DNA of 64,000 nt, taken from assembly GCA_046331705.1 (NCBI GenBank), contig JAXLQJ010000005.1:186001-250000 (forward strand). Reading direction: 5' to 3'. Positions 5,301 to 44,488 of this stretch are shown piece after piece. Position 1 is the stretch's first letter, and every line of letters starts with the position of its first letter. The stretch comes from a bacterium. GTDB lineage: Bacteria > JADJOY01. Under the pieces are notes generated by a model, which ran no database searches, was not told the origin of the DNA, and saw only the letters and a list, made by a program, of their open reading frames with translations. Position numbers and translations under genes: made by a program.

Positions 5301-6564
5301 CGTCGACGGCGAGCTTGGCGAGGCGCGCGCCGTGCAGCTCGGCCTCGGCGATCCCCGCCTTCGCCTGCAACCGCAGCGCGTCGAACGCGCCGGAAGCTCG
5401 CGCGTCGAGCGTGAGGCCCGCGCCGGTCAGCCCGATCCCGCCCGCCAGTGCGTCGGCGAGCGCGAGCGTTGGCGCCGATGCGCTCACCCGCACATCGGTG
5501 TTCGACCCGATCGCGTCGAAGCGACCCGCGGCATCGAAGGCGAGATCGCCGAAATGCCCCTTCACCGCCAGCTTCTCGTAGTCGGTGAACGAGCCCGAGG
5601 CCTGGCCTTCCAGCCCGAGGTCCTGACCGAGATACGCGCCGGAGAGCGAGGCGATGCCGATCGAGACTGCATCCGGCACCACGCCGTCGAGGGTGAGGTC
5701 GCCGGTGAGCGGCCCCGGCAGCTCGGGAACGTCGGCGAACGCCATCACGATCGGCTCCAGTCGCACGCGATCGAGATGCACCTTGGCGTGTGTCGCGAGG
5801 GTGAGCGGCTCGAAGGTGCCTTCGAGCACGTGCACGCCGCCTTCGGGGGTCGCGACGTCGACCCGCGCGACGCGCAGCACGTCGCCGTCGAGCGCCACGT
5901 CGATGGCGATGGGACCCACCTGGCCGCGCCCGTAGCGGGCCTCCACGATCCCGAGCTTGGCGTGCAGATCGGAGGGCTCGACCACGCCTCCCGCTTCCAG
6001 CGAGATCCCTTCGACCTCCAGATCGTCCCCGCCGCCGTGGTCGGCGAGCTCGAAATAGCCGTCGGCGAGATGGACCTCGCCCACCTCGATCCTGAGCGGT
6101 AGCGGCGGGATGAGATGGTCCTCGCCCGGAGGGATCGGCGGCTCCGGGATCTCCGGCTCGACCGGCGACGGCGCTCCCTTGCCCGGGGTGGGAGGCCACT
6201 GAAAGGTCCCGTCGTCGGCGAGGCCGAGGCGCACCCGCGGTTGCTCGATGGTCAGCGAGCGGACCCGCACGGCGAGCGGCGCGACGCTCGAGACCCGGTA
6301 TTCGAGGGCGAGCCGGCTCACGCGGATCCACGGCTCCTCGCCAGGCGTGCCGAAGGTGGCGTCGCGGATCTCGATGCGCCGCCCCAGATCGTGCGCCAGC
6401 AGGCCAACGTGCAGCTCGAACCCCACCAGCGGCAGCACCCGCGGCGCGAGCCAGGTGAGGAACGCGTCGTTGCCGAGCAGCACCGCGAGCAACGCGAGCA
6501 AGCCCGCGAACCCCAGCAAGAGCCAGGTCACGAGCCGCGCACCGCGGCGGAGCACGTTCTTCAT
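2383..6564 (-). CDS. tamB: Translocation and assembly module TamB-like protein (AsmA-like, DUF490-type C-terminus)
   Basis: About 1393 aa with an N-terminal TM anchor (MKNVLRRGARLVTWLLLGFAGLL), long Gly-rich beta-strand repeats and a C-terminal GT..RPQVLGQV..G.IDF...P.....L.SSP....DI..LL.TG region. TGATG coupling to the upstream Omp85 gene. Confidence 0.88.
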   Translation of the reverse strand: MKNVLRRGARLVTWLLLGFAGLLALLAVLLGNDAFLTWLAPRVLPLVGFELHVGLLAHDLGRRIEIRDATFGTPGEEPWIRVSRLALEYRVSSVAPLAVRVRSLTIEQPRVRLGLADDGTFQWPPTPGKGAPSPVEPEIPEPPIPPGEDHLIPPLPLRIEVGEVHLADGYFELADHGGGDDLEVEGISLEAGGVVEPSDLHAKLGIVEARYGRGQVGPIAIDVALDGDVLRVARVDVATPEGGVHVLEGTFEPLTLATHAKVHLDRVRLEPIVMAFADVPELPGPLTGDLTLDGVVPDAVSIGIASLSGAYLGQDLGLEGQASGSFTDYEKLAVKGHFGDLAFDAAGRFDAIGSNTDVRVSASAPTLALADALAGGIGLTGAGLTLDARASGAFDALRLQAKAGIAEAELHGARLAKLAVDGGLDGDAVEARLAFDDLAAPGVSLGGGWLTAGGTLGKLDVALGVGSAIEAKGTFDTDSLRVDAAGTIRKLDLEPFLALVGARDADGSIEDASFRARGLVTDLTKLDGAATVNGLRVSAHGAALIQTTPFEIELAGGRANGHGSLALVPLTPAGQPAAGLDDRTIAARAIVGLKDHTLDANVEGKLALGEVVSVARPFVPMLAQGSGSLEVRASFQGPLRDPATKAFVSGRDLAVRLVPGASAAPVAAAAADASSPAAAPAPAPGNAIDVNLRVLDFGAAGDLTKLYGTLWIDGGEATAYGRRLWDMSGLVKLDGGDVWVNDVRMAADGIWLVAYGSVEHDGRLGLNLRSEGGRVEAMSDLTKQDLSGALDIQVASSGTLRAPVAKAHISATDLYFRERAIGDLVAEAEADGQHATLSVKLPGDGVVTAETGLAAGSRFSAQARVRRLPLDPGLKGFQDVLPPPFRDASGYLAFDADLAGPLDDPAALSGTVVLNAFEIAGADAKLALAAPCTARVDGSTLDLDRARLVLGDGFVEVGGRVSPARQEIDVALELDPKLADGVAKGVEIGSGRIVLRDGRIVRAGDDLNVHGVLTAGVDSVTIRGIPDAMRDVSVEARFDGRPWSLSRAFFRMGDGDLTASASGSLEDVSIAESEIDFHALPYRMPKTVRAAASGRLAVAGDRNDLRVTGKVRIDEALYERDVEVLQNVIKPIATPGRKTRTSASELPAILDAIHLDVAVTSGEDLLVRNNVARLAATADLNVKGTAARPQVLGQVRVGEGTVKLFGRSFALDTGTIDFSNPLAIDPDVHIVTRSTIDRDSGSVDVLISLDGTVSKGFALVLSSSPEYPQDDIVFLLATGKTRAELQSGGTGGTSITGPALMAVSLLGGDKVKEALGLEELGLEESATGGARVSVAKRLGDRMTVRAINEIGGKGKAPLAVAVEYQLLDRVLLVATPQSNGAFGAEVRFRFLFR

Positions 6565-9506
6565 CAGAACGGGTATCCGAACGAGAAGTGGAAGCCGACG
6601 CCGTCCGGAGCGGCGCCCGCCACCACCGGATAGCCCACGTCGAGACGCAACGGCCCCACCGGCGAGCGCAGCCGAATGCCGGCACCGGCGCCGACCTGGA
6701 ACTTGTCGATCGTCGCAGCGGCGATCGTCCGCGTGATCTCGCCGGCGTCGACGAAGAGCGCGCCCTCGAGCAACCACACCAGCGGGAAACGCAGCTCCAG
6801 GTTCCCCAGCAAGCGCGCGCCGCCGCCGAGTGGCTTGCCGTTCGAGTCGAGTGGCCCGATGCGATCCTCCTCGAAGCCGCGCACGGTGCTCGTGCCACCG
6901 GTGAAGAGCAGCTCGGGAGTCGGCACGACGGTGGTCGAGCCGTAGAGATCCACGTCCGTGAAGCGCACCGAGGCCACCGCGACGATGCCGTCCGCGAGCG
7001 TCTGGTAACGGCGCGCCTGCAGGTCGTAGCGCACGAAGTTGTCGTCGCTGAGGTACGCCCGCGACGAGAGCCCGATGCTCACGGACGCGAACGTGCCGCG
7101 CGTGGGATAGAGCAGATCGTCGCGGGAGTCGTAGGCGAGCGAGGGCGTGAGCAGCAGCTCGCGCGAGGTGCCCGGCTCGGGGGCATCGGGATCGTCGGCG
7201 ACCACGTTGCTGGTGTCGGTGAGCTCGTAGCCCACCTCGAACGCGGCCGTCAGGTCCCAGGGCAACGCGCGGCTCACGCTGCCGCCGACCCGGATCGAGC
7301 GCTGGTCGAAGGCCTCGAGATCCGTGTCCGAGTACGCCCCCGAGAGCGCTCCCTTGAAGCTCGAGCCGAAGAGACGCGGATCGGAGAGCACCACGGTGCT
7401 GCCCTTGTCACGCTGGCCGTAGGTGCCGTTGACCGTGAGCTTCTTGGCGCGGTCGAAGAGATTGAGCTGGCGGAAGGTGAAGCGACCGGAGGCGCCGCGG
7501 TCGGTGTCGTAGCCGAACCCCAGGTCGAGCTCGGTGCGCGGCCGCTCGCGAACCTGGACCTTCACCGGCACGTCGATCGGCTCGACGACGGCATCCGCGT
7601 GAGCGCTCACGTCGAGGCCGACGGGTGCCACCTGGATGGCGTCGAAGACCTCGAGGTCGCGCACGTTCTTCTGGGTATCGGCCAGGCCGCCGGGGGTGAG
7701 CAGGGCGCCCGGCTCGAGGGCGAAGGCGCGTTTCACGACACCCTTGCGTGTCTCGTTCGCGCCCAAGAGCACCAGATCCGTCACGCGGTAGAGCGGCCCC
7801 GGCGCGATCCGAAACGCGACCTCGGCGGCGCCTTCGGTCGGCTCTCCGCCGCCGGCGATCGGAGTGGGGACCAGCTCCACCGAGGCCTCGACCCGTGCCG
7901 CCAGGTAGCCGACGCTCTGCAGCTCCTTCTCGAGCGCGGCGGCGACGGCGTCGACGTCGACGGTGCGATAGAGATCGCCGGTGGCGGCCGTGAGCTTCGC
8001 CGCCACGAGGTCCGCGATGTCGGCGCGGCTCCCTTCGATCGACACGGTGCCGATCCGGTAGAGGGGGCCACGGTCGACGGGAAAGACCGCGACCACTCCC
8101 TCGTCCACCGACTCCATCCGCGCGATGCCGACGGTGGCCTCGGCGAAGCCGACGGACTTGTAGTAGTCGATCAGCGCACCGCGATCTTCTTCCAGCAGCG
8201 CCGACTGCCAACGCGGCGCGAGCAGCAGCCAGCGCGAGCGACCGCTGCCCAGCGCGTCCTGCGGCTTTAGCGCGACGGGCGCAGCGGGCGCGACTCGACT
8301 CGCATCGGCCGGGGCCGCGACCGGGGGCGGCTCGGCGCGCTTGCGGACGAAGCGCCGGCAGTCCTCGGGGTTCGCGTCCTCCTCGGCGCCGATCGCCGGA
8401 TCGTCGATGCACACCGCCGCCAACGACCGCTCCGCGCCCTCGCGAATCGTGTAGCGGACCCGCACGTCGTCGTCGTGCTCGACGCGCTCCTTCGCGACCT
8501 CGACGCTCGGGAAGCCCTTCGACTCGTAGAGCGCGCGGATCGCCTCGGCACCCTCCTCGACGAGGAAGATGCCGTAGCCACCCTCGCGAGCGAATGGCAG
8601 CACCTCGCGGAGGTCGTCCTCGTCGATGCTCTCGTTGCCGCTGAGCTCGACCGAGAGCTTCTTCCCCTGCCGCACGGTCACCGCCAGCGGCACGTGACCG
8701 TCGGCGTCGGCCGGGCCGGGCACGGCGTCGACGTGGACCCGCACGTAGCCGAGCTCGCGGTAGCGCGCTTCCAGCTTCTCGACGCGCTTCGTGAGATCGT
8801 CGCGGGTGAAGAAGATCCACGGACGGAGCGCCGAGCCCACCTCGTCGTCGGAGAGCGCGCTCGAGCCCGTGACGGTGATGGCTCCCACGCGCGTGAGCGA
8901 GCCGCGGCTACAGGGATAACGGATCGAGATCTCGCCGCCGTCGTCCGCGGATTCGGCCGAGCAGGTCGAGCCCTGGAAGCCGTTTTGCTCCATCAGCTTC
9001 GCGACGCGTTCGGCTTCCGCCGGCAACAGGCTCGGGTCGAACGCGTCGCCGGCGCGCATGCGCAGCGCCTTGAGCGCATCGCGCTCGAAGACCGGGAAGA
9101 TCCCCGCGAACTCGATCTCGCGGACCACCGGCTGGCGCGTGAGATCGAGCACCAGCACGTCGCCCGCGGGGCTCGGCTCCACGTGGAGCTCGCTGTGGCC
9201 GATGATCGGCAGCGACGCGAGGAAACGGCGCACCGCCGCCTCGGCCGTCGCGTCGAAGGGCGCGGCCATGCGAACCGGCAGCGAGCGGCGGATCTGCTCG
9301 GTGGGGATGCCGACGTCGGCGTCGATCCGGACGTCGACGATGACCGGAGGCGGCGCGCTCGCCGTCGGCGCGGCGGGAGCCGTCGCCTCCTCGCCGGGCG
9401 GAGCGGGAGCGGGCGGCTCCGCGCGGGCAACGTCCGCGCCGAGGCACGCGAGCGCGAGAACCGCCAGCCCCGCCCAGACGCGGGGTTTCAGCAGCTCGGG
9501 CGCCAC
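6564..9506 (-). CDS. Omp85-family outer membrane protein (TamA/BamA-like) with multiple POTRA domains
   Basis: Signal peptide, repeated POTRA-like units (e.g. YRELGY, YESKGF, YYKSVGF, LQSVGY), barrel motifs YDSRDDLLYPTRG, GGTSTVRGF and SPVGPLRLD, C-terminal FHFSFGYPF. Start (GTG 9506) is approximate. Confidence 0.9.
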   Translation of the reverse strand: MAPELLKPRVWAGLAVLALACLGADVARAEPPAPAPPGEEATAPAAPTASAPPPVIVDVRIDADVGIPTEQIRRSLPVRMAAPFDATAEAAVRRFLASLPIIGHSELHVEPSPAGDVLVLDLTRQPVVREIEFAGIFPVFERDALKALRMRAGDAFDPSLLPAEAERVAKLMEQNGFQGSTCSAESADDGGEISIRYPCSRGSLTRVGAITVTGSSALSDDEVGSALRPWIFFTRDDLTKRVEKLEARYRELGYVRVHVDAVPGPADADGHVPLAVTVRQGKKLSVELSGNESIDEDDLREVLPFAREGGYGIFLVEEGAEAIRALYESKGFPSVEVAKERVEHDDDVRVRYTIREGAERSLAAVCIDDPAIGAEEDANPEDCRRFVRKRAEPPPVAAPADASRVAPAAPVALKPQDALGSGRSRWLLLAPRWQSALLEEDRGALIDYYKSVGFAEATVGIARMESVDEGVVAVFPVDRGPLYRIGTVSIEGSRADIADLVAAKLTAATGDLYRTVDVDAVAAALEKELQSVGYLAARVEASVELVPTPIAGGGEPTEGAAEVAFRIAPGPLYRVTDLVLLGANETRKGVVKRAFALEPGALLTPGGLADTQKNVRDLEVFDAIQVAPVGLDVSAHADAVVEPIDVPVKVQVRERPRTELDLGFGYDTDRGASGRFTFRQLNLFDRAKKLTVNGTYGQRDKGSTVVLSDPRLFGSSFKGALSGAYSDTDLEAFDQRSIRVGGSVSRALPWDLTAAFEVGYELTDTSNVVADDPDAPEPGTSRELLLTPSLAYDSRDDLLYPTRGTFASVSIGLSSRAYLSDDNFVRYDLQARRYQTLADGIVAVASVRFTDVDLYGSTTVVPTPELLFTGGTSTVRGFEEDRIGPLDSNGKPLGGGARLLGNLELRFPLVWLLEGALFVDAGEITRTIAAATIDKFQVGAGAGIRLRSPVGPLRLDVGYPVVAGAAPDGVGFHFSFGYPF

Positions 9507-9537
9507 CGACCGCCGCGTGACGCGCGCAGCGCGGGCA

Positions 9538-10251
9538 TCACTCGAAGCGAAGCTCGGCAAAGTGCTCGGGCTGGTGGATGTCGGGAGTCGGAAGCCGTGC
9601 CCACGTCGCGTGCTCCTCCGGCTCGACCGTGGCGATGTGCCGGCTGAAGTTCGCTCGCCACACCTCACCGGCCTCGGGAGTGCCGCGTCCCAGCGCCTTG
9701 AACGGGACGCGCAGCTCGACCACCCAGCCGCCCATGGCGTCGCGAGCGGCCACCTGGATCCCACCCGCGTTCCACGCCTTGGTCTTCTGGGCATGCTGCG
9801 TGAGCGCCACCGCGCCGCTCGAGGACACCGTGACCTCGTAGTAGGTGCCCTTGGCGTCGCCGGGTGGCTGAAGCTGGACGGTCACGGAATCGTCCTGGCC
9901 GATGGTCTCGACGTCGCGGCCCTTCGCCGTGCGCTTGCGACGCTCGAGGTAAGGCTCACCGCAGCGGAAAGCGACGAACAGGTTCTCGGCGTCGATCGTG
10001 ACGTAGACCTCGGTGGCACGCGACGGCGCGTGCTTGGGCGAGCCGGCCACGTAGAGGTGCTCGACCCCGGCCGAGTTGCCCCAGCCGTCCTCGTTGAGGC
10101 GCCCGTCCACGACCGGCGCCTTGGGAGCGAGCAGTGGCACGAGGAAGAGCGCCGCGTCGTGCTGATCCGTGCTGGTCGGCTCCGGATCGGCCGCGAACGC
10201 GAGCGGCGCGACCAACGAGATCGCCAGCACCCACCCGGCGGTGTTCCGCAT
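9538..10251 (-). CDS. Secreted carbohydrate-binding family 9-like (CBM9/DOMON-like) protein
   Basis: Signal peptide (MRNTAGWVLAISLVAPLAFA); PVVDGRLNE..W, D.ENLFVAF.C, DDSV.V.L.P, W.VELRVPF..L, WRANFSR. Confidence 0.75.
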   Translation of the reverse strand: MRNTAGWVLAISLVAPLAFAADPEPTSTDQHDAALFLVPLLAPKAPVVDGRLNEDGWGNSAGVEHLYVAGSPKHAPSRATEVYVTIDAENLFVAFRCGEPYLERRKRTAKGRDVETIGQDDSVTVQLQPPGDAKGTYYEVTVSSSGAVALTQHAQKTKAWNAGGIQVAARDAMGGWVVELRVPFKALGRGTPEAGEVWRANFSRHIATVEPEEHATWARLPTPDIHQPEHFAELRFE

Positions 10252-13217: not shown

Positions 13218-14054
13218 ATGAACGACGTGATGACGACGGAATCGGTGGAAGTCGGCCCGCTGCGCGTCCAGAAGAACGGGCACGTGACGTGGGTCTTCCT
13301 CGCTCGTCCCGACACTCGCAATGCCATGGGCCCCGATCTGTGGGAGGCGCTGCCCAAGGTGTTCGGTGACATCGACCGCGACGACTCGTGCCGGGTCGTC
13401 GTGCTGGCCGCCGAGGGCAAGCACTTCACCGTCGGCCTCGACCTCAAATCGGTCGGCAGCCTGGTCCAGTTCGAGGGCTCCCAAGCCCAGCAGCGGCGCG
13501 CGCTGCATCAGGAGATCCTGCGCCTGCAGGAGAGCGTGAGCGCCATCGAGCGTGTCCGCAAGCCGGTGATCGCCGCGATCCACGGCTACTGCATCGGCGG
13601 CGGCATCGACGTCATCACCGCGTGCGACGTGCGCGTGGCCTCGAAGGATGCGCTCTTCTCGGTGCGCGAGACGCGGATGGCCATCGTCGCCGACCTGGGC
13701 ACCTTGCAGCGGCTGCCGGGGATCGTGGGGCGAGGTCACGCCGCCGAGCTGGTGTTCACCGGCAAGGACGTCGACGCGGAGCGAGCGCGCGAGATCGGGT
13801 TGGTCAATCACGTGTTCGCGGACCGGGAGGCGGCGCTCGAGGGCGCGCAGGAGCTCGCCGACGAGATCGCGTCCTTGAGCCCGCTTGCGGTACAAGGATC
13901 CAAGCAAGTCATGGCCGCCACCCGCCGGAACGAGATCGCCGAGGGATTGCGTTACGTGGCGCTGTGGAACTCGGCGTTCCTGTTCTCCGACGATCTGGGC
14001 GAGGCGCTCGCATCGTTCATGGAAAAGCGCAAGCCGGACTTCCAAGGCGCGTGA
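13218..14054 (+). CDS. Crotonase-superfamily enoyl-CoA hydratase/isomerase (delta3,5-delta2,4-dienoyl-CoA isomerase-like)
   Basis: FTVGLDL, KPVIAAIHGYCIGGGIDVITACDVR, FSVRE...ADLGTLQRLP; AGGAG upstream of ATG 13218. Confidence 0.92.
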   Translation: MNDVMTTESVEVGPLRVQKNGHVTWVFLARPDTRNAMGPDLWEALPKVFGDIDRDDSCRVVVLAAEGKHFTVGLDLKSVGSLVQFEGSQAQQRRALHQEILRLQESVSAIERVRKPVIAAIHGYCIGGGIDVITACDVRVASKDALFSVRETRMAIVADLGTLQRLPGIVGRGHAAELVFTGKDVDAERAREIGLVNHVFADREAALEGAQELADEIASLSPLAVQGSKQVMAATRRNEIAEGLRYVALWNSAFLFSDDLGEALASFMEKRKPDFQGA

Positions 14055-14074
14055 GCGCGCACGCGAGCACGACG

Positions 14075-15415
14075 ATGAGGCGAGGCGGGTGGCGCGCGGC
14101 TCTGTTGGCGATCGCGATCGCCGCCGGATGCGGCAGTGGCGGCGGCGGCCAGGAGGGCCCGCCCGGCCCGCTGCTCACCCGAGCCCGCGGCTACGACGCG
14201 TGGCACGAAGCGCACCACCAGCCCCTCTACGGCGCCACGGTCGAGGTGCGGTTCACGGACGACTCGCTGACCGAGGTGCTGCGCTACGAGGGACGCGGCG
14301 ACTCGACGATCTGGACCGGCACTTACCTCGCGAGCCAAGCGTTCCGCTACGCGGTGACCCGCGACGAGCAAGCGCGCACCAACGTCCTGGCGATCGTCGA
14401 CACCCTGCACAACCACCTGAAGGTCACGGGGCGCGCGGGGTTCATCGCCCGCTACCGCGCACCCGCGGATGCCCCGGGCGTGTATCCGTGCGATGCCGAC
14501 GACGAGAACTGCCACGTGGTCGCCGACGGCCCGTTCGCCGGCGACCTGTGGACGGGCAACACCAGCCGCGATCAATACACCGGCTGGTTCTTCGGCATGG
14601 CGCTCGCCTACGACTTCGTCGAGGACGAGGGCATGCGCCAGACCATTCGTGACGACGTGAGCGAGGTGATCGACGCCGTCGCCCGCCAGAAGTACCTGAT
14701 CGTGGACGTGGACGGGATCAAGACCACCGCGGGACCGGAAGCGCTGCCGCCGTTCGCGATCAACTGGCACCTGATCGCCTACCACGTGGCGGGGCGCCAG
14801 CAGGACCTCGACGCGGCGCTCGCGATCGCCGCCAACCGCACGCTCTACGAGATCGCCACCGTCAGCTTCAACAATCGCTACGTGCAGTTCTACGGCAACA
14901 ACCTGAGCCACCAGAACTACTACAACGCCGAGCGGCTCAGCCGGGACGTTCCCGCGATCCACGAGCTCATCCAGACCAATTTCCGAGAGCAGATCCACAA
15001 GAGCGTGCACCTGGCCCACAACGCATTCTTCGAGCTCATCCACCGCTCGGTGGAGGGCGAGGACGATGCGACGCTCGACGCTTCGATCCTCGAGGACCTC
15101 GGCGCGTTCCGCGAGCCGCCCAACCGCGGCTACGCCGTCGACCCGCCCCAGGCGCCGCTCGACCCGTACTCGGTGCTGCTGGTGGCGTTGCAGACGGCGA
15201 TTCCCGAGCTCGCCGACATCATCGGCACCGCGCATCTGCAGGCGCTCGCGGCCTATCCCGTTCCGTACCAGTGCAGCACCGACTTCTTGTGGCAGCGCAA
15301 TCCGTTCGTGGTCGAGTGCGATCCCGAGGACCCGGCGCTCGTGAACCCCGGCGTCGATTACCTGGTCGGATACTGGATGGCGCGCTACCACGGCCTGCTC
15401 GGCCCGCAGGATTGA
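14075..15415 (+). CDS. Lipoprotein of unknown function, possibly an (alpha/alpha) toroid glycosidase-like fold
   Basis: Lipobox IAAGC; GDSTIWTGTYLASQAFRYAVT and SRDQYTGWFFG blocks; aromatic-rich helical sequence. Alternative GTG start at 14051. Confidence 0.6.
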   Translation: MRRGGWRAALLAIAIAAGCGSGGGGQEGPPGPLLTRARGYDAWHEAHHQPLYGATVEVRFTDDSLTEVLRYEGRGDSTIWTGTYLASQAFRYAVTRDEQARTNVLAIVDTLHNHLKVTGRAGFIARYRAPADAPGVYPCDADDENCHVVADGPFAGDLWTGNTSRDQYTGWFFGMALAYDFVEDEGMRQTIRDDVSEVIDAVARQKYLIVDVDGIKTTAGPEALPPFAINWHLIAYHVAGRQQDLDAALAIAANRTLYEIATVSFNNRYVQFYGNNLSHQNYYNAERLSRDVPAIHELIQTNFREQIHKSVHLAHNAFFELIHRSVEGEDDATLDASILEDLGAFREPPNRGYAVDPPQAPLDPYSVLLVALQTAIPELADIIGTAHLQALAAYPVPYQCSTDFLWQRNPFVVECDPEDPALVNPGVDYLVGYWMARYHGLLGPQD

Positions 15416-18985: not shown

Positions 18986-19030
18986 CCATGTGAGCTGCTC
19001 GGCACCCCGTTCGACGGCAGGAGGTCGTCC

Positions 19031-19453
19031 ATGAATCCGCGCACACTCCATCAGATCGAGACTTCGCTGGCCCACGCGCGGGAGGAGCTGCTGCGTGAGA
19101 GCCAGGCGGCGGAAGCCGACCTGGCAACGCTCACCGAGATCCGCGTCGAACCCGAGCTGATCGACCGCGCCCAAGACGAAGCGCTCATCAGCGTTCTCGA
19201 CAGGCTCGACGAGCGCGAGCGAGGCGAGATCGCGGCCATCGACGCCGCCCTCGCCCGGATCCGCGCCGGCACCTTCGGCACCTGCCTCGGCTGCGGCGAG
19301 GCGATCGCCGTCGCCCGCCTGCAGGCGCAGCCCACCGCGACGCTCTGCCAGGAGTGCGCGGGTGCCGCGCGCAAGACGCCCCCGGCGCGAGCGTCACGCC
19401 CCGCGCGCGGAGCGCATCATCCCGCGCGTGAGCGGCGCGGCGCAGGTCGATAG
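19031..19453 (+). CDS. TraR/DksA-family C4-type zinc finger protein
   Basis: Coiled coil with ELIDRA tip, IDAALARIRAGTFGTCLGCGEAI..ARL.A.P.ATLCQEC; AGGAGG RBS. Confidence 0.92.
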   Translation: MNPRTLHQIETSLAHAREELLRESQAAEADLATLTEIRVEPELIDRAQDEALISVLDRLDERERGEIAAIDAALARIRAGTFGTCLGCGEAIAVARLQAQPTATLCQECAGAARKTPPARASRPARGAHHPARERRGAGR

Positions 19454-20067
19454 AGGCCGGCGGGATTCGATCCCAGGAAGCCGGCCTCGTACACGTCGCG
19501 ATCGACGCGGCTCAGGCGCGCGATCATGGCGCGCGTGACCAGCGGGCGGTGCTCGCGCCGGTCGAGCGCGTCGACGATCGCGTCGACCGCCCGCGCGTCG
19601 GTCCGCCACCCGTGGGCCTCGAACCGCCGCAGGTCCACCGGCAGCGAATACGAGCGCAGCGTCTTGCGGTACTCCACGTTGTAGTAGAACTCGAAATACG
19701 AGAGGGCGAGCTCGCGCAGATTGCGGAAGATCGGCTCGCGATATCGCAACGTGGTGGTGTTCGACTTGGCGACCGCGCCCAGGTGGCCATCGACCTGGAA
19801 GATGGCGAGCACGTGGTCGTCGTCCCGCACCGCGCGGAGATCGACCAGCAACGGCGGGTGACCGAGGCGTTCCAGCGCCGCCGCGGCGAAGAGCGCCCCA
19901 TCCATGCAATGCGCACGACGGTCGCGAAGCACGTCGCGCGGCGAGCGGTAATCGCTCTCGTCGCTGTAGGCGAGCGCATCCAGGTATTCCTGGATCTTGC
20001 GCGGCGTCACCAGGCGGCGCAGCACCGCACGCTCGTCAGCCGTCCAAGGCTCGACCTTCCGACTCAC
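19417..20067 (-). CDS. Conserved hypothetical protein, transglutaminase/cysteine-protease-like
   Basis: RAHCMDGALFAAAAL, DDDHVLAIF, GAVAKSN, LRYREPIFRNLRELALSYF; candidate Cys/His catalytic residues. Confidence 0.7.
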   Translation of the reverse strand: MSRKVEPWTADERAVLRRLVTPRKIQEYLDALAYSDESDYRSPRDVLRDRRAHCMDGALFAAAALERLGHPPLLVDLRAVRDDDHVLAIFQVDGHLGAVAKSNTTTLRYREPIFRNLRELALSYFEFYYNVEYRKTLRSYSLPVDLRRFEAHGWRTDARAVDAIVDALDRREHRPLVTRAMIARLSRVDRDVYEAGFLGSNPAGLYRPAPRRSRAG

Positions 20068-20229
20068 CGGACCTCCGCTCGTCGATCGCCGGGCGCGCGA
20101 GGCTCGCCCGGCAGCGAGCGCCCCGGTTTGTCACGAGGGTTGCCGTCGCGCAACCGCGCCGGCGGCGGTCGGGCACGACTGGCGCGCGAGTCGAGCGTCG
20201 AGTAAGAGTGGGCGCCCGGCGGCTGCCCC

Positions 20230-22218
20230 ATGACGCCCCTCGACGCCCATCCTTCGCGCTCGCCGTGGCCATGGCCCACGAGCACTCGCGCTTCGACGCG
20301 AGCGCTCACGCTGGCGCTGGCAGTCGCCGTCGTCACGGCCGGCTGCGCCGGTGGGAAGACCACCAGCGCACGCGGCAGCGGCACGCCGCTGCGCGTGGGC
20401 GTCGCCGTGGTCGACGTCACGCCGACGAGCTGGGAACGATTTCACGATGCCAACGGGAACGGGACGTGGGATTTCGCCGACGGCGAGCCGTTCGACGACT
20501 TCGGGCGCGACGGCATCCCTTCACCGGCGGAGCCCGGCTACGACCCGGTCACGAACCCCGATCCCAACCACGACGACTTCGATCCGGTCTCGAACGCGAG
20601 CGGCGGCGAGGGCAACGGCCGCTTCGAGCCGATCTGGATGGCCGGCTTCGCCAACGCGTATCCGGCGGTCGGCGTCCACGACCCGATCACGGTGCGTGCG
20701 CTCGCCCTCGCGCAGGGCGACGTCACGACGGTGCTCGTGGTGCTCGACGTCATCGGTGTGCTGACTCCTTCGCTCGAGCCGGCGCTCGATCGGATCGCCG
20801 CGGAGACCGCCATCGATCCCGCGCGCATCCTGGTGAGCGCGATCCACTCCCACGAGGGACCCGACACCCTGGGGCTGTGGGGTCGAACCGAGTACGAGTC
20901 CGGCATCGACCCCGTGTATCAGGCACGTCTGCTCGACGGCCTCGTGGAGTCCGTGGTCACGGCGCTCGGCTCGCTGCGCGAAGCCGAGCTCGCGGTGGCG
21001 GCAGTGACGCTGGATCTCGGCACGGCGGACCTCGCCCTGGACCACCGCGACATCGATCCCAGCGACCCGCCGCAGCTCGCCAACGACATCCGCCTGCCGA
21101 GTGTTCGCGATCCGCAGCTGCTCGCGATTCGAGCGGTGGCGGGCGACGGCCAGACGATCGCGACGCTGCTCGAGTGGGCGGATCACCCGGAGAGCATCGG
21201 CTCGCGAAACAACCTGATCTCGGCCGACTATCCAGGCTACGCGCGCGCCCGCCTCGAGGCCCGGCTGGGTGGCACCGCGATCTACCTGAGCGGCGCCCTG
21301 GGCGGGCTGATCACGCCCCTCGACGGCGCGCTCGTTCCCTACTGGACCGACGACGGGAAGCGCGGAACGGATCCCGCCACCGGCCTCTCGTGGATCGCCG
21401 ACGATGGTTTCGACAAGGCTCGCTCGCTCGGCTACGAGCTCGCCGAGCGAGCAGCCGACGCGCTTGCTTCCGCGCCCGCGATCGCTCCCGACTACCTGGA
21501 CTTCCGCCGCCGGGAGTCGCGCCTTCCGATGGAGAACCTGAATCTGGTGCTGGGGCTCGTGACCGGCGTGATCCCCGGCAGCTCCTCGTATTTCAGCGAC
21601 GAGGGCGAGGGCCTCTTCGACTTCTCGGATCCCGACCACTGCAGCCATTGCGGCTGCATCCGCACCCCGGTCTTCCGTCTCGATCTCGGCGGGCTGGCGA
21701 CCCTCGTCACCGTCCCCGGCGAGCTCTTCCCGGAAGCGCTCACCGGGCGCGACGAGCGGCGCCACGCGTTCGCGACGCCCGAGCACGACTACGGCGCCAC
21801 GACCTTTCCGGCGATCGAGGGATTGCGTGGCATGAAGGGCGCGCCCGAGACGCTGCTGGTCGCCGGGCTCTCGCCCAACGAGCTCGGCTACCTCATCCCC
21901 CAATCGGACTATCTCGACTTCACCGTGTCGGAGCTGCTCTTCGGCGGAGTGGGCAGCCCGCTCTCGCATCCAAACTTCTACGCGGAGTATTTCTCGCTCG
22001 GCCCGCGCGCCGGCGACACGCTCTACTGCGATCTCGTGAGCATCCTCGAGCTCCACCCGAATCCCGAGACGCGAACGCGCTGCGAGGCCGTGAGGCGCTC
22101 CACGTTCGTGGCGAATGGGTCCGACGCCGTCTGCAAGCTGGCGCGGGCATTGCCGGGGCCACTCGACGATCTCGCCCAGATCCTGCCGAGCGCCGCGGCC
22201 GCGGGGCGTTCGCGATGA
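20230..22218 (+). CDS. Neutral/alkaline ceramidase-like exported hydrolase (lipoprotein)
   Basis: Lipobox VTAGC; LRVGVAVVDVTP, MAGF...A.GVHDPITVRALAL, SAIHSHEGPD (HxH), HPE, ISADYPG, GALGG, VPGELFPE, NELGYLIP. Confidence 0.8.
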   Translation: MTPLDAHPSRSPWPWPTSTRASTRALTLALAVAVVTAGCAGGKTTSARGSGTPLRVGVAVVDVTPTSWERFHDANGNGTWDFADGEPFDDFGRDGIPSPAEPGYDPVTNPDPNHDDFDPVSNASGGEGNGRFEPIWMAGFANAYPAVGVHDPITVRALALAQGDVTTVLVVLDVIGVLTPSLEPALDRIAAETAIDPARILVSAIHSHEGPDTLGLWGRTEYESGIDPVYQARLLDGLVESVVTALGSLREAELAVAAVTLDLGTADLALDHRDIDPSDPPQLANDIRLPSVRDPQLLAIRAVAGDGQTIATLLEWADHPESIGSRNNLISADYPGYARARLEARLGGTAIYLSGALGGLITPLDGALVPYWTDDGKRGTDPATGLSWIADDGFDKARSLGYELAERAADALASAPAIAPDYLDFRRRESRLPMENLNLVLGLVTGVIPGSSSYFSDEGEGLFDFSDPDHCSHCGCIRTPVFRLDLGGLATLVTVPGELFPEALTGRDERRHAFATPEHDYGATTFPAIEGLRGMKGAPETLLVAGLSPNELGYLIPQSDYLDFTVSELLFGGVGSPLSHPNFYAEYFSLGPRAGDTLYCDLVSILELHPNPETRTRCEAVRRSTFVANGSDAVCKLARALPGPLDDLAQILPSAAAAGRSR

Positions 22219-23804
22219 CGAAGGCGACACGCCCCGTCCGCGGTCGCCCGGGGGTCGCCGTACGGACGCTCCTCGCCACCCTGCTCGCGACGGGGCTCGC
22301 CGCGTGCAGCTCCCGCGACGGCGCCGACACGGAACCCGAGCAAGGCTCGTGCGAGCCCAACACCCAGGCGTTCGTCTCCCGCCCCACGCCGTCGCCCGCG
22401 ACGCTGCCTTTCCTGCACGTCTCCGGCACGGACGTCGTCGACGAGAGCGGCCAACGGGTCGCGTTGCGCGGCGTGAACCTCGGGAGCTGGCTCTTGGTCG
22501 AGAGCTGGATTCCCGGCATCGGCATCGAGAACTTGGATTGCTCGGACTGGAACGAGGTGCTCATCCGCAAATGCGAGGAGCTGGGCTGCGAGCGCACCAT
22601 GCGGGTGGGCGTTCCCCTCGCCTATCTCCAGCACTTCGTGGCGCTCGAGCCGTGTGCCCGTGTCGCCGAGTTCCTGCGCGGCTGGAGCACGGCCCACGCG
22701 ATTTCCGGGGAAGCCGAGGCCATCGGCCGGTTCTGGGAGTGGTACGACTCGACTCCCAAGGTCGCGAGCGAGCAAGAGCTGTGGAGATCGGTGGCCGGTC
22801 GCTTCGGCTGGCGGGAGAGCCAACGCCTCCGCGAGACGTACCGCGAGCGCTGGATCACCGAGGATGATCTCGCGCGCATCGCCGCGCTCGGCCTGAGCTT
22901 CGTTCGGCTGCCGTTCTGGTACGACTGGCTGGAATCGGACGATGCCGCCGGCGCGCGCTTCCGTCCCGAGGGCTGGGCGCGACTCCACCAGATCCTGGAA
23001 TGGGCGCGAGCCCACCGTCTGTACGTGCTCCTCGACATGCACGGGGCGCCGGGCGGCCAGAACAACGAGACCCACAGCGGCACCAGCGACGGCAACCGAC
23101 TGTGGTTCGACGAGCGCTGCAGCGCGAAGACCGCGCGCCTATGGCAGGCCATCGCGAGCTACGTCGCCGACGATCCGCACGTGGTCGGCTTCGACCTGCT
23201 GAACGAACCGCTGTCGATCTACGACGCCGGCCGCCACCAAGCGGTGCTGTCGCAGATCTATCAGGCGATCCGCGCCGTCGACGGGCGACACATCGTGATG
23301 AACGAGGACGGCTACCTGCCGCTCTTCCTGGTACCGTCGCCCGTCGAGATGGGCTGGGAGAACTTCATGTTCTCGATCCACTTCTACGGCGGCGGCACGA
23401 GCGCGGACCAGCGGGTCGCGGAGCTCGCGCAGAAGCTCGCCGGGCTCGCGGACGTGTGGGACCGACGCTTCCGCTGCCCGCTTCTCCTCGGCGAGTTCTC
23501 CACCTACGATCCCGGCGCCGAATCCATCGAGGCCATGCGGCGGTCCTTCGCGCTGCTCGATTCCCACGGCATCCACTGGTCACCTTGGACCTACAAGCAG
23601 TGGGACGCGAGCTCGATCTGGGGGCTCTATCACGCGAAGCCGCCCTTCGCGCGCCTCGACCTGGCGAGCGCCAGCCTCGCCGAGACCCGCGACTGGATCG
23701 CCGCGCTCGGCACCGAGCATTTCGAGACCGATCCGGCATTCGAGGCCGCCTACCGCGAGCAGGCGCCCACGCCTGCGCAGCCGTTCTCGCTCGACTTCGA
23801 ATGA
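22215..23804 (+). CDS. Glycoside hydrolase family 5 (clan GH-A) lipoprotein
   Basis: Lipobox LAAC; LRGVNLGSWLLVE, VRLP, LLDMHGAPGGQN, FDLLNEP (acid/base Glu), SIHFY, LLGEFS (nucleophile Glu), WTYK; ATGA overlap. Confidence 0.92.
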   Translation: MTKATRPVRGRPGVAVRTLLATLLATGLAACSSRDGADTEPEQGSCEPNTQAFVSRPTPSPATLPFLHVSGTDVVDESGQRVALRGVNLGSWLLVESWIPGIGIENLDCSDWNEVLIRKCEELGCERTMRVGVPLAYLQHFVALEPCARVAEFLRGWSTAHAISGEAEAIGRFWEWYDSTPKVASEQELWRSVAGRFGWRESQRLRETYRERWITEDDLARIAALGLSFVRLPFWYDWLESDDAAGARFRPEGWARLHQILEWARAHRLYVLLDMHGAPGGQNNETHSGTSDGNRLWFDERCSAKTARLWQAIASYVADDPHVVGFDLLNEPLSIYDAGRHQAVLSQIYQAIRAVDGRHIVMNEDGYLPLFLVPSPVEMGWENFMFSIHFYGGGTSADQRVAELAQKLAGLADVWDRRFRCPLLLGEFSTYDPGAESIEAMRRSFALLDSHGIHWSPWTYKQWDASSIWGLYHAKPPFARLDLASASLAETRDWIAALGTEHFETDPAFEAAYREQAPTPAQPFSLDFE

Positions 23805-25174
23805 GTCGCGGGCTCGCGCCGCTCTTGGCCGCGGTGACGCTCGCCGTGGGCTCGTACGGGCGAGCCGAAGCCGCGAGCGCGGGGCCCGCCGCAGTCGCGC
23901 CACCCGTCGTGATCGTGGTCTTCGACGCGCTGCGCGCCGATCACCTCGGCCTCTACGGCTACCGCGCGCGGCCGACCAGCCCCACCTTCGATCGGCTCGC
24001 GGGCGAATCGATCGTTCTCGACGATGCCCGCGCCGCGGCGCCGTACACCCTCGCCTCGGTGGCGACCTTGCTCACGGGGCGCCCCCCGGACGAGCACACG
24101 CTCACGACGTTCGAGCGCGCCCTTCCGAGAGACGTGCCGACCCTCCCTCACGCGCTCGCGAGCAGCGGCTATCGCTCGCTGGTCGCGAGCCGCTCCGGCA
24201 TCCTGCACGGCTTCGCCCTGGAGGATTCGTTCGAGCTCGAGCTCGTCGACCCCCAGCTCACCGAGGATCCCCGCGCCTTCCGGAGCCGCTGGAAGGAGGG
24301 CATCGGAACACTGGCGGCGGGCCCCCAGCCCTGGTTCGCGTACCTGCATTTCTTCCCACCGCACGCCCCCTATCGCCCTCCCAAGGCATTCACGGTCCCG
24401 TTCGTGCTCCCCAACGTCGAGGGCGTGAGCGGCTCGATCGCGTTTCTGCGGGCCCTCGACAGCGGCGCGACCAAGCTCGGCGCCGCGGCGCTCGACGCGC
24501 TGGTGGCTCGCTACGACGCCAACATCCGCTACGCCGATCACGAGCTCGCGGATCTCCTCGATCATCTGGGGAAGCTCGGGGTCCTCGAGCGCGCGTGGCT
24601 CGTCGTGACCTCCGATCACGGCGAGGCGTTCGGCGAGCACGGCCGCTTCGAGCACAACTCCACGGTCTACGAAGAGATGGTGAAGGTTCCGCTGCTGGTA
24701 CGCCCGCCCGGCGGCGCGCAGCGCGCGACGCGAATCGGCGAGCCCGTGGGCCTCGTGGACCTGGCACCCACGGTGCTCGCGTGGGCGGGCCAGCCGGTGC
24801 CGGCCGAGATGGCGGGCAGGCCGCTACCGCTGGCCCCCGGTGCCCGCTACGCGGCGCGCCCGCGGCCCATCACCCTGCGCAGCGCCTCGCCGCCGGTGCG
24901 GTTCGGCATCACCGACGGCGACTGGAAGTACGTTCGGCCGCTGGACGATTCCGCCGCGTCGAGCATCGCGAGCGAAGAGCTCTACGATCTCGCCGCGGAC
25001 CCCCGCGAACGCACCAACCTCGCGGGCACGCGCGGCGATGTCCTGGCGCGATTCCGCGAGAGCGCCGCCCAGGAGCTCGCCCGCCAGCGGGCACACGCCG
25101 CCGCTCCACGCACGCTCGAGGCGATGCCGTCCGAGACCGGCGACGCGCTCCGGGCACTCGGTTACGTGCAGTGA
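23801..25174 (+). CDS. Exported sulfatase / alkaline-phosphatase-superfamily hydrolase (Thr at the nucleophile position)
   Basis: Signal peptide; FDALRADHL..YGY, PYTLASVATLLTG, HFFPPHAPY, YDANIRYAD, TSDHGEAFGEHG, VPL, ELYDLAADP.E..NL, LRALGYV; ATGA overlap. Confidence 0.88.
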   Translation: MSRGLAPLLAAVTLAVGSYGRAEAASAGPAAVAPPVVIVVFDALRADHLGLYGYRARPTSPTFDRLAGESIVLDDARAAAPYTLASVATLLTGRPPDEHTLTTFERALPRDVPTLPHALASSGYRSLVASRSGILHGFALEDSFELELVDPQLTEDPRAFRSRWKEGIGTLAAGPQPWFAYLHFFPPHAPYRPPKAFTVPFVLPNVEGVSGSIAFLRALDSGATKLGAAALDALVARYDANIRYADHELADLLDHLGKLGVLERAWLVVTSDHGEAFGEHGRFEHNSTVYEEMVKVPLLVRPPGGAQRATRIGEPVGLVDLAPTVLAWAGQPVPAEMAGRPLPLAPGARYAARPRPITLRSASPPVRFGITDGDWKYVRPLDDSAASSIASEELYDLAADPRERTNLAGTRGDVLARFRESAAQELARQRAHAAAPRTLEAMPSETGDALRALGYVQ

Positions 25175-27814: not shown

Positions 27815-28888
27815 TCAGCGCGGGCGAAGGTGATCGAGGACGCGCAAGAAGTTGCCGCCGAGGATCTTGCGGATGCGCTCGTCCGACCAGCCGCGGCGCA
27901 GCATGGCGTCCACCAGCCGCGGGAACTCCACACAGGTGAGCATGTCGTCGGGCGGGCAGATGCCGCCGTCCCAGTCGCTGCCGAGCGACGCGTGATCCTC
28001 GCCGACGACCTTCACCACGTGGGCGAGGTGATCCACCACCCAGTCGACCTTGGCGTTCAGCCAGGACGGGCCCAGGAAGCTCGACTGATACATGATGCCC
28101 ACGGTGCCGCCGGTATCGGCGACGGCGCGGAGCTGGTCGTCGTCCAGGTTTCGCCAATGGCGATACACGCCGTTGACGCCGGTGTGGGTCACGATCAGCG
28201 GCAACGAGCGATCGTGGACGGCGACGGCGTCGAAGAAGCCCTCTCGATTGATGTGCGCGAGATCCACCAGGATCCGCTTCTCGTCGAGCTTGCGCACGAA
28301 ATCGCGCCCCAGCTCCGAGAGCCCGCGCCCCGCGCCGGTGCGTCCGTACGGGTTGCTGGTCACGCCCAGGCGCGAGGTCGACAAGTGCACCAGCGTCACG
28401 CGGACCAAGAGCCGCTCGGGAATGCGGTCCAGATCCTCGAGGGAGTGATCGAGGGCGTTGCCGCCCTGGACCGAGAGGAACACGGCGTGACGGTCGTCCG
28501 CGCGCGCCGCCCGATACTCGCCGACGTCGCGCGCCAGCGCCACGCGCTCGGGGGCGCTGGCGAAGAGCGCCTGGAAGCGCTCCAGGTTGCGGAAGAAGGT
28601 TCGCGAGCGACCGGCGGCGCTGCGGAACGGATTGGTGGTGATGCTCCACAGCCCGCCGGTGAACCCCGCTTCGACCAGACGCGGTAGATCGGTGTGGCTG
28701 TAGAAGCGGCCGTTCAAGAGGCCGGGTCCGTGACGCTGGAAGATGTCGTAACCGAAGAGCCGGTGCTCGATGAACGCGTCGATGTGCAGATCGATGACGT
28801 CGGCGCCGTGGACGAGATCGAGCGCCGCGCGCGTGACGCCCAGGCGCGCGGCCGCCTCGGTTCGATCGAGCGACGACGGCAAGCTCAC
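27815..28888 (-). CDS. Peptidase M19 (membrane dipeptidase) family amidohydrolase
   Basis: DLHID, DLPRL, GLSELGR, VDLAH, VTHTG, RNLDD.QL.A.A..GG.VG, H.SLGSDWDG, KILGGNFLRV. Confidence 0.9.
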   Translation of the reverse strand: MSLPSSLDRTEAAARLGVTRAALDLVHGADVIDLHIDAFIEHRLFGYDIFQRHGPGLLNGRFYSHTDLPRLVEAGFTGGLWSITTNPFRSAAGRSRTFFRNLERFQALFASAPERVALARDVGEYRAARADDRHAVFLSVQGGNALDHSLEDLDRIPERLLVRVTLVHLSTSRLGVTSNPYGRTGAGRGLSELGRDFVRKLDEKRILVDLAHINREGFFDAVAVHDRSLPLIVTHTGVNGVYRHWRNLDDDQLRAVADTGGTVGIMYQSSFLGPSWLNAKVDWVVDHLAHVVKVVGEDHASLGSDWDGGICPPDDMLTCVEFPRLVDAMLRRGWSDERIRKILGGNFLRVLDHLRPR

Positions 28889-41607: not shown

Positions 41608-42762
41608 TCAGAAACCGAGCAGAAAACGGGCGATGGAACGGCGCTGGATCTCGCTCGTTCCCTCGACGATGGTGAGCATTCGCACGTCGCGATAGAAGCG
41701 CTCGATGGGCAGCTCCTTGGTGTAGCCCGCGCCGCCGTGGATCTGCAGCACGCGGTCCGCCACCCGGTTCACCATCTCGGTGGCGAAGAGCTTGGCCATC
41801 GCGCACTCCTTGTCGACGTTCTTCCCCGCGTCCTTGGCGCGCGCGGTGGCGTAGACCAGCGCGCGGCTGGCCTCGAGCTCGGTGGCGCTGTCGGCGAGCA
41901 TCCATTGGATGCCCTGATTGGCGCCGATGGGTGCCCCGAAGGCGTGACGGAGCTTGGCGTACTCGGTACCCATCTCGAGGAGCCGCTCGGCGGCGCCGAC
42001 GGCGCACGCCGCGAGATTGAGCCGCCCGTCGTTGAGGCACGCCTGGATGAGCCGGAAGCCGAAGCCGAGCTCGCCGAGCAGGTTCTCGGCGGGAACCTCG
42101 CAATCCTCGAAGATCACCTCACCGGGATGCGAGCCGCGCCCGCCCATCATCTCCTGCTGCTTGCCGAGCGAGAGCCCCGGCGAGCCCTTGGGCACGAGGA
42201 ACGCCGAGATCCCGCCGCGCGAGCGCTTGTCCTTGTCCGTCACGGCGAAGACCGTGAACAGCTCGGCGCGGTGGGCGTGGCTGATGTAGTGCTTGCGGCC
42301 GTTGAGCACCCACTTGTCGCCGCGCCGCACGGCGCTGGTCTGGATCGCCTGCGCGTCGCTACCGGCGCCGGGCTCGGTGAGCGCGAACGAGACCAGAAAC
42401 TCGCCGCGCGCCATGCGCGGCAGGTACTCGCGTCGCTGCGCCTCGGTGCCTCCCAGCAAGATCGACTTCTGGCCGATCGAATTGTTGACCGTGATGTAGG
42501 TGCGAACCGCGCTGTTCGCCTTCGAGATCTCGCCCGACACCACCGCGTACGCGAGCGAGTCGAGCCCCATGCCGCCGTATTCCTCGGGGATCGTGAGCCC
42601 GAAGAGCCCGAGCTCGCGCATCTGCTGCACGATGTCCGCCGGCACGAGCGCTTGCTCCTCGATCTCGTGCTCGCGGGGGATGACCTCCCGATAGATGAAC
42701 TTCCGGATCGTGTCGCGAATCGCGATCACGTCGTCACCGAGATCGATGAGCGGAGAATCCAC
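41608..42762 (-). CDS. Acyl-CoA dehydrogenase
   Basis: GL.IPEEYGG, FALTEPGAGSD, LNGRK.YIS, NLLG..G.GF, AKLFATE, QIHGG.GY, RD.R...I.EGTSEIQR. Confidence 0.96.
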   Translation of the reverse strand: MDSPLIDLGDDVIAIRDTIRKFIYREVIPREHEIEEQALVPADIVQQMRELGLFGLTIPEEYGGMGLDSLAYAVVSGEISKANSAVRTYITVNNSIGQKSILLGGTEAQRREYLPRMARGEFLVSFALTEPGAGSDAQAIQTSAVRRGDKWVLNGRKHYISHAHRAELFTVFAVTDKDKRSRGGISAFLVPKGSPGLSLGKQQEMMGGRGSHPGEVIFEDCEVPAENLLGELGFGFRLIQACLNDGRLNLAACAVGAAERLLEMGTEYAKLRHAFGAPIGANQGIQWMLADSATELEASRALVYATARAKDAGKNVDKECAMAKLFATEMVNRVADRVLQIHGGAGYTKELPIERFYRDVRMLTIVEGTSEIQRRSIARFLLGF

Positions 42763-44486: not shown

Positions 44487-44488
44487 CG

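Follow-up and report, generated by a model that had tools for sequence, protein, structure and literature searches.

Do three exported hydrolases, encoded by overlapping genes in a metagenome-assembled bacterium, act together on (glyco)sphingolipids? The genes lie at positions 20230-25174 of a 64,000-nucleotide stretch of DNA, called here the window (contig C5 of genome G000, 186001-250000). All positions below follow the window numbering. The genes encode a ceramidase-like protein (P0001), a glycoside hydrolase of family 5 (GH5; P0002) and a sulfatase-fold protein (P0003). A preliminary description of this DNA had read them as a single system for (glyco)sphingolipid disassembly. Our verdict is that the GH5 and ceramidase-fold pair is a new, testable two-enzyme module, and that the three-step pathway is unproven. 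To our knowledge, bacterial (glyco)sphingolipid breakdown is known from few isolated enzymes (such as Pseudomonas ceramidase and Rhodococcus endoglycoceramidases) and not as a conserved genetic module. In the literature, no described conserved or fused GH5 and ceramidase-fold module was found, with subscription journals mostly outside the search. A search on myxobacterial ceramidases returned nothing relevant.

The G000 genome has 8.17 Mb in 118 contigs, 70% GC, and is 95.67% complete. Its GTDB phylum contains six species genomes in total, in one family and two genera, and all the records seen from this phylum are metagenome-assembled. Related proteins and contigs bear the source names Myxococcales, Polyangia or Deltaproteobacteria. 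The stretch is present in 19 DNA runs from 11 studies. Their labels are activated sludge, sludge, wastewater and digester, with the single exception of an unspecified metagenome. The features of the locus are the following (aa, amino acids).

20230-22218, + strand: P0001 open reading frame, 662 aa, lipoprotein with a neutral-ceramidase catalytic-domain fold
22215-22218, + strand: ATGA overlap of the P0001 stop and the P0002 start, direct from sequence
22215-23804, + strand: P0002 open reading frame, 529 aa, lipoprotein GH5
23801-23804, + strand: ATGA overlap of the P0002 stop and the P0003 start, direct from sequence
23801-25174, + strand: P0003 open reading frame, 457 aa, secreted sulfatase-fold protein

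The three overlapping genes of the preliminary description were confirmed in the sequence, and third-position GC backs their reading frames. A DNA contig from another run spans 19000-23318 with 6 differences, and position 23801 is bridged by contigs of two further runs. The gene arrangement is not an assembly artefact, because contigs from other runs bridge both junctions. We also saw, by eye, the two lipoboxes and the signal peptide described before. P0001 (...VVTAG/C) and P0002 (...GLAA/C) have lipobox-like N-termini. P0003 has a hydrophobic N-terminus with the end AEA/AS. The family assignments held as well, with PF04734, PF00150 and PF00884 all above the curated Pfam cut-offs.

The strongest evidence on this locus concerns the first two genes. 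A GH5-alignment scan of metagenome contigs gave 80 loci, where relatives of P0001 were sought by tblastn. Seven of them contain a match, six at expect values (E) of 2e-24 to 2e-62 and a weak one in L105 (9e-11). The seven are all in the group of the 17 closest GH5 relatives (identity of 37-44%); the 63 more distant ones contain no match. The Fisher test for this difference gives p = 6e-6, for a split chosen after the data were seen. The paired loci range from 42 to 72% GC and differ in their arrangements. More precisely, the two genes are adjacent in L109 and L115. In L111 (42% GC) the order is ceramidase-like gene, GH84, GH5. L113 has its ceramidase-like gene amid four GH5 genes, with overlapping ends. 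In L102, the ceramidase-like gene lies 1.6 kb downstream of GH5, and a metallophosphatase and a sulfatase-fold gene follow farther on. Finally, L106 presents a single 1027-aa open reading frame, where the ceramidase-like domain comes after the GH5 domain.

We found six distinct fusion lipoproteins of this kind (P0373-P0378), of 985-1054 aa and with mutual identity of 64-85%. Their GH5 part is 38-41% identical to P0002. Their ceramidase-like part is about 30% identical to P0001 and keeps the metal site. All the GH5-linked ceramidase-like partners show lipobox-like N-termini. A quick tree of 68 rows was made, with 16 of the 76 usable loci and three orthologue duplicates left out. There, the P0001 family groups with four of the five GH5-linked ceramidase-like proteins (Shimodaira-Hasegawa-like approximate likelihood ratio test, 89). 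This group is apart from a 47-row Bacteroidota clade and from a 9-row clade, neither with a GH5 neighbour. The ceramidase-like protein of L115 stands elsewhere, on a long branch and not with the P0001 group.

The sister genomes give a third line of evidence. Genome G001 carries a second locus, where an FG-GAP gene is followed by a ceramidase-like gene (66% identical) and, on the opposite strand, a GH5 gene (56-58% identical) precedes a PF12876 gene. In G000, the orthologous FG-GAP and PF12876 genes are 43 bp apart, with neither the ceramidase-like nor the GH5 gene between them. At the sigma/dksA locus, which lies in the window, both genes are present in G000 and only a GH5 relic in G001; at the FG-GAP/PF12876 locus, G000 has neither gene and G001 has both. 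The two genomes are complementary: each carries the two genes jointly at one locus and lacks them jointly at the other. The recurrence in unrelated contigs, the six fusions and this joint presence or absence support that the ceramidase-like and GH5 genes form a real and functionally coupled module, as judged from gene content.

The same evidence bears on a simpler explanation, that three unrelated exported hydrolases share one transcription unit of a hydrolase-rich genome. The full trio is found in two of the six family genomes, G000 has many paralogs of each type, and the operon is not defined by promoter or terminator signals. The scan for both signals between 19300 and 25600 returned 0 and 0 sites, and it is uninformative at 70% GC. 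Against this explanation stand the recurrent linkage, the fusion proteins and the joint gain and loss. We consider it very improbable for the locus, and for the pair it is already disfavoured.

Other paralogs in G000 have different surroundings. One, on contig C1, is located after dnaX and ybaB, beside an unknown gene. Another, a ceramidase-like copy on C59 (L181 3255-6347), has a GH84-like gene at a distance of 3 kb. The genes in between are unrelated, so that the linkage is weak at best.

What would each enzyme of the pair do? P0001 has a sole Pfam match, PF04734 Ceramidase_alk (41.8 bits vs a cut-off of 32.1; 7.5e-11). It is confined to residues 135-347, which correspond to positions 17-231 of the 509 in the profile. 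The structure model (predicted local distance difference test, pLDDT, of 80.4) was compared with solved structures. With VIA, it aligns to residues 2-484 of 2zws with Z 33.9 and a root-mean-square deviation (rmsd) of 2.8 A over 383 residues. The human 4wgk reaches Z 31.7, and the best entry unrelated to ceramidases just Z 8.1. Likewise, Foldseek returned 4wgk, 2zws and 2zxc only (E 1e-23 to 1e-25). The catalytic-domain fold is the same as in the neutral ceramidases PaCD (2ZWS, 2ZXC) and ASAH2 (4WGK), with rmsd of 2.7-2.8 A over about 380 residues.

The amino acids H206, H208, H319, E498 and Y554 are invariant in 27 aligned relatives (alignment A1) and in 9 (A4). H206/H208 and H319 line up with the HTH and HP motifs of 4wgk and 2zws. 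We take these five positions to be the Zn ligands and the catalytic His, with roles as in the PaCD structure. The His-x-His, His, Glu and Tyr positions of the neutral-ceramidase Zn site align with these invariant residues of P0001, and those enzymes are likewise exported. P0001 differs from them in the absence of the C-terminal domain. It also presents an Asp-rich insert, a helical tail, a lipid anchor and a separate GH5-linked clade. The insert (residues ~70-133; window 20437-20628) and the Cys-containing helical tail (residues 608-662) have low model confidence. The comparison supports, at the level of the model, that P0001 is a Zn-amidase with the neutral-ceramidase fold and an intact metal site; its activity is predicted.

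The Asp-rich insert resembles a calcium-binding repeat. It matches many PF00756 esterases of about 780 aa, with 42-60% identity over 7-19% of the query. The few named members among these esterases are from Kofleriaceae or Polyangia.

P0002 belongs to PF00150 (83.5 bits vs a cut-off of 23.5; 2.4e-23). Its GH5 catalytic pair, N330-E331-P332 and G426-E427, is invariant in 18 sequences. Its structure model has a pLDDT of 86.6. Among solved structures, the GH5_22 exo-beta-xylosidase 9ku5 comes nearest to P0002 (E 1.3e-21 by sequence, template modelling score 0.61-0.68, 17% identity). CelC follows, and so do the GH5_9 exo-1,3-glucanases, the latter at E ~1e-15. GE32 (9KU5) and the GH5_9 fungal exo-beta-1,3-glucanases share with P0002 the region of the N-terminal G-x-N-L-G-x-W motif, at 17-20% identity. 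Unlike P0002, they have no insert at ~103-183, are not lipoproteins and have no known amidase linkage. According to a passage in PMC6020330, GE32 was initially chosen as a putative endoglucanase. The insert of P0002 is helical, of ~80-120 residues (helices 109-224), absent in 9ku5 and conserved in the subfamily. From these comparisons, P0002 looks like a GH5 of an exo-type lineage and is predicted to be exo-acting.

For the GH5, endoglycoceramidases and glucocerebrosidases had been named as known activities of the family. The Rhodococcus endoglycoceramidases I/II and endogalactosylceramidase (2OSW, 5CCU, 6JYZ) have the same GH5 (beta/alpha)8 fold and retaining Glu pair, and act on glycosphingolipids. 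P0002 is distant from them, looks exo-acting and has its own helical insert. Many other GH5 enzymes are at least as close to it as the endoglycoceramidases are. An assignment to endoglycoceramidases (GH5_28/29) was ruled out by the score for the endoglycoceramidase family NF051847 (17.7 bits, cut-off 700), by the match to the endoglycoceramidase II 2osw (E 8e-4) and by ranks 19-37 in the Foldseek search. No GH5_12 glucosylceramidase or steryl-glucosidase chain is among the 36 PDB sequences at E <= 0.01 with P0002 as the query. As far as it is testable, P0002 seems to fall outside the known glycolipid-active GH5 subfamilies.

Taken together, the ceramidase-fold amidase and the GH5 probably strip sugar and fatty acid from N-acylated glycolipids, for example glycosphingolipids. 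We propose that P0001 and P0002 would be a two-enzyme surface module, with both lipoproteins anchored outside the cytoplasmic membrane. In the first step, the GH5 would take a beta-linked sugar off an N-acylated glycoconjugate. Cleavage of the amide-linked fatty acid would follow, by the Zn-amidase of neutral-ceramidase fold. The most likely substrates would be glycosylceramide-type lipids of other organisms. Which enzyme acts first, their place at the cell surface and the nature of the substrate are inferred. To this model of the pair, with glycosylceramide-type lipids as the leading substrate, we give roughly even chances.

Several features fit a membrane glycolipid with its acyl chain in amide linkage. 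The solved or characterised relatives of the P0001 fold found here are ceramidases only, and both partners are lipoproteins. In the family of P0001, a protein of 1418 aa (P0115) has the ceramidase-like domain fused to a purple-acid/metallophosphatase domain. In another of 952 aa (P0216), three ceramidase-like stretches are matched, followed by an SCP2 lipid-transfer domain. These three stretches read as a duplicated domain.

The origin of such a lipid was considered from the genome. Among 8 PF00155 matches in G000, 2 were judged by eye to be alpha-oxoamine synthases, and they score as Kbl and BioF above the cut-offs of those families. Serine palmitoyltransferase was not found, as both synthases fall below all three cut-offs for it, with 2 of the 8 PF00155 matches scored. 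Its absence is not proven, because of the genome completeness and of this choice by eye. With no serine palmitoyltransferase found, any sphingolipid substrate would therefore be exogenous. An exogenous sphingolipid source in activated sludge is plausible. Lysosomal and intestinal glycosphingolipid breakdown (glucocerebrosidase, ceramidase, sphingomyelinase) is an analogy and follows a like logic, with head-group removal and then amide cleavage. The lysosomal glycosidase belongs to GH30 and the one here to GH5, and the predicted bacterial system would be envelope-anchored.

Several observations weigh against the pair as a glycolipid-stripping module. P0001 scores 39.6 bits against the NCBIfam neutral-ceramidase equivalog NF041649, with a cut-off of 1200. 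It is about 20% identical to the solved ceramidases, and it is without their C-terminal beta-sandwich domain, so that the structural alignment ends at residue 484 of 630 in 2zws. For P0002, exo-xylosidase and exo-glucanase structures are closer than those of endoglycoceramidases. In the ESM Atlas, its structural neighbours frequently carry CBM6/35, ricin or SLH modules, typical of glycan-active enzymes. In 10 of the 17 close GH5 loci there is no ceramidase-like gene, although three of these loci are shorter than 3 kb. We also collected 79 ceramidase-like loci with a narrower ceramidase alignment from 185,579 species genomes. Most of them (75 of 79) have no P0002-type GH5 nearby; P0002 relatives occur in 2 and P0003 relatives in 3, all from this family. 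Two family genomes, G004 and G005, retain the ceramidase-like gene without any P0002 orthologue. At the level of RNA, the metatranscriptome run X20 has three short perfect contigs, one in P0001 (21527-21789) and two in P0002 (22586-22736 and 22747-22897). They cross no gene junction and DNA carry-over is possible, so co-transcription is neither shown nor refuted. Finally, some neighbours point to other glycans. A GH84 beta-N-acetylglucosaminidase-like gene is found in 4 of the 17 close GH5 loci (L105, L111, L112 and L113), and L112 also holds a GH47 alpha-mannosidase gene. To judge by gene content, they suggest glycans bearing N-acetylglucosamine (GlcNAc) as much as glycolipids. Bacteroidota members of the ceramidase-like family lie beside SusC-like receptors, BD-FAE esterases and a BNR/YdjC protein, contexts which look like polysaccharide utilisation.

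These neighbours are the base of a second explanation, where the pair acts on a non-sphingolipid N-acylated glycoconjugate and the ceramidase-fold enzyme is a general amidase. The candidates are GlcNAc-Asn or N-glycan cores from glycoproteins of eukaryotes, the lipid A or lipopolysaccharide of Gram-negative neighbours, lipo-chitooligosaccharides and N-acylated exopolysaccharide. Besides the GH84-like, GH47 and Bacteroidota contexts, the four GH5 genes around the ceramidase-like gene of L113 agree with it, and so does the proximity of P0002 to exo-glycosidases of oligosaccharides. The ceramidase-like family is also huge: a threshold of E <= 0.001 yields 5743 clusters (50% identity), one of 1e-10 yields 1671 and one of 1e-30 still 252. 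Therefore, a single substrate for the whole family is unlikely. On the other hand, ceramidases are the only solved or characterised members of the fold that were found here. The SCP2 lipid-transfer fusion speaks for lipids, and the lipoprotein nature of both partners suits a membrane-borne substrate. We know of no N-glycan amidase or lipid A amidase with this fold, although no search aimed at them was made. We regard this explanation as rather unlikely, and glycosylceramide-type lipids stay the leading substrate of the pair.

Does the third gene belong to the same pathway? Pfam assigns P0003 to PF00884 (144.5 bits vs a cut-off of 25; 5.9e-42) and to PF16347 (SGSH_C; 49.5 bits, 6.6e-13). The NPP-type family PF01663 also matches (35.8 bits vs 23; 9.1e-9), and the best of its two stretches covers only residues 36-103. 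The best PDB match is the choline-sulfatase 7oz8 (3.4e-26). Residues 82-86 of P0003, T-L-A-S-V, are aligned to S-T-P-A-R of 7oz8, which places Thr82 at the nucleophile position. This motif is kept in five orthologues, in agreement with the Thr-type sulfatase of the preliminary description. The metal-site segments F-D-A-L-R and S-D-H-G-E (Asp, Asp-His) are conserved in the P0003 family.

P0003 shares the fold, the SGSH_C subdomain and the metal-site residues with S1 sulfatases, but not their defining C/S-x-P-x-R motif. The assignment to formylglycine (S1) sulfatases was rejected for this absence. It means that sulfate removal from sulfatide is unlikely. P0003 has Thr at the nucleophile position, like the NPP-type enzymes (NPP/ENPP7). 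It scores far from the EptA, MCR and LtaS models. As a sulfatase-fold protein of the alkaline-phosphatase superfamily with this Thr, P0003 would act as a phospho(di)esterase with greater likelihood than as a sulfatase. A literature search for Thr-type sulfatase-like enzymes found nothing beyond choline sulfatase.

P0003 is one of many such proteins. We found 22 sulfatase-fold paralogs in G000, and 21 of the 22 have Thr at the nucleophile position. The usual context in the Thr paralogs is W-T-x-P-S-H-A-S-L-F-T-G, and the lone Cys paralog is C115. The Thr-type sulfatase-fold branch is a large, uncharacterised expansion. The group of P0003 is common in Acidobacteriota, Planctomycetota and Myxococcota, with members frequently fused to TPR repeats.

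The place of P0003 in the family was examined through the gene order, for which two more features are needed.

25356 to ~27200, - strand: PKD-domain protein, convergent with the three genes, conserved in each of the five relatives (77-86% identity)
27815-28888: M19 dipeptidase, conserved in all five relatives along with the PKD-domain protein

In G000 and G003 the order is sigma, dksA, a hypothetical gene, ceramidase-like, GH5, sulfatase-fold, PKD and M19. GH5 is missing from G004 (74% complete) and from G005 (100% complete), where the sulfatase-fold gene comes right after the ceramidase-like one, and in G005 there is no P0002 relative at E <= 1e-10. At the same locus, G001 and G002 present the hypothetical gene, a C-terminal GH5 relic, the sulfatase-fold gene, PKD and M19. 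The relics are located in G001:C19 (L096 7845-7949) and G002:C68 (L097 7398-7737), have 35-77 aa and 40-63% identity, and stand directly upstream of the sulfatase-fold gene, as traces of a deletion that took the ceramidase-like gene and most of GH5. A check of triplet conservation had been suggested; the triplet is complete in G000 and G003 and incomplete in the other four family genomes. In G003:C41 (L016 8355-10248), the ceramidase-like orthologue appears as two overlapping pieces (residues 21-469 and 468-649), either by a frameshift or by an assembly indel error.

A three-step pathway would have P0003 remove the charged head group of a sulfated or phosphorylated glycosphingolipid, the GH5 its sugar and P0001 the ceramide amide. 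The ATGA overlaps join all three genes, and four of the six family genomes (G000, G003, G004 and G005) have a ceramidase-like gene adjacent to the sulfatase-fold one. Phosphoesterases recur with the ceramidase-like family, as in the P0115 fusion and in L102, where the metallophosphatase and the sulfatase-fold gene are within 5 kb of the pair. A precedent exists in ENPP7, the intestinal alkaline sphingomyelinase, a member of the alkaline-phosphatase superfamily with a Thr nucleophile, which acts together with neutral ceramidase. Nevertheless, P0003 has no C/S-x-P-x-R motif and is one of the 22 paralogs. Its gene stays in G001 and G002 despite the loss of the ceramidase-like gene and most of GH5. 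Outside the family, a P0003 relative occurs near the pair in a single one of the 80 GH5 loci (at 26% identity), and none of the 75 other ceramidase-like loci has one. For the wider ceramidase-like family, at most 15 of the 79 loci share any one neighbouring gene family. The sigma, dksA, PKD and M19 neighbours are equally syntenic, and therefore the adjacency of P0003 within the family may be inherited order only.

We consider the three-step pathway unlikely. The sulfatase-fold gene is a lineage-specific neighbour within a generally conserved synteny block. P0003 would belong to the same transcription unit by position, and its role in the pathway of the pair is putative. So, of the disassembly system first described, the coupling of the ceramidase-like and GH5 genes stood (recurrence, fusions, sister loci). 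The sulfatase-fold step did not, with its gene a neighbour in the 3 ceramidase-like loci of its own family and a distant relative in a single GH5 locus.

The richness of the window in fatty-acid genes had also been brought to the argument. Two acyl-CoA dehydrogenases and the chalcone-isomerase-like gene were found, but no crotonase was met in the part of the open reading frames scanned. These genes lie 16-30 kb from the trio, with haem, poly(A) polymerase and other housekeeping genes between. Being distant and past housekeeping genes, they are uninformative on the trio. The other features of the window are the following.

2383-6777, - strand: TamB-like gene, paired with the TamA-like gene
6564-9794, - strand: Omp85/POTRA TamA-like gene, paired with the TamB-like gene
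13388-15415, + strand: long open reading frame, strong coding signal, no Pfam match at the thresholds used
41608-42900, - strand: acyl-CoA dehydrogenase
42831-46694, + strand: acyltransferase (PF01553) and APP1-like phosphatidate phosphatase, next to the acyl-CoA dehydrogenase, at least 17 kb from the trio
47843-49084, + strand: long open reading frame, strong coding signal, no Pfam match at the thresholds used
52043-52702: chalcone-isomerase-like gene
52727-55000, - strand: acyl-CoA dehydrogenase
58767-61157, - strand: long open reading frame, strong coding signal, no Pfam match at the thresholds used

Downstream of the TamB/TamA-like pair come a PAP2 phosphatase and an AhpC/TSA peroxiredoxin.

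A broader reading of the pair is tentative, and we hold it possible but doubtful. It would be a widespread cell-surface module for glycolipid stripping, in which a ceramidase-fold amidase is combined with a GH5 exo-glycosidase whose helical insert faces the lipid, the two being fused in one lineage. With it, bacteria that do not make sphingolipids would harvest eukaryotic or bacterial glycosphingolipids, and in the candidate-phylum lineage of G000 P0003 would have been recruited as a head-group phosphodiesterase. If this were true, the harvest would be sugar, fatty acid and long-chain base. The system would then be a bacterial counterpart of the pair of alkaline sphingomyelinase and neutral ceramidase.

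The two steps of the pair are linked by gene order, fusion and joint gain and loss, and the natural fusion makes the hypothesis directly testable. The expansion of Thr in place of formylglycine (21 of the 22 paralogs) poses a second question of enzyme function. The ceramidase-like family is very large in environmental bacteria and almost wholly uncharacterised, so the substrate of one clade would anchor the annotation of many genomes. In wastewater and sediment communities, this substrate would also matter for how sphingolipids, or other N-acylated glycoconjugates, are turned over.

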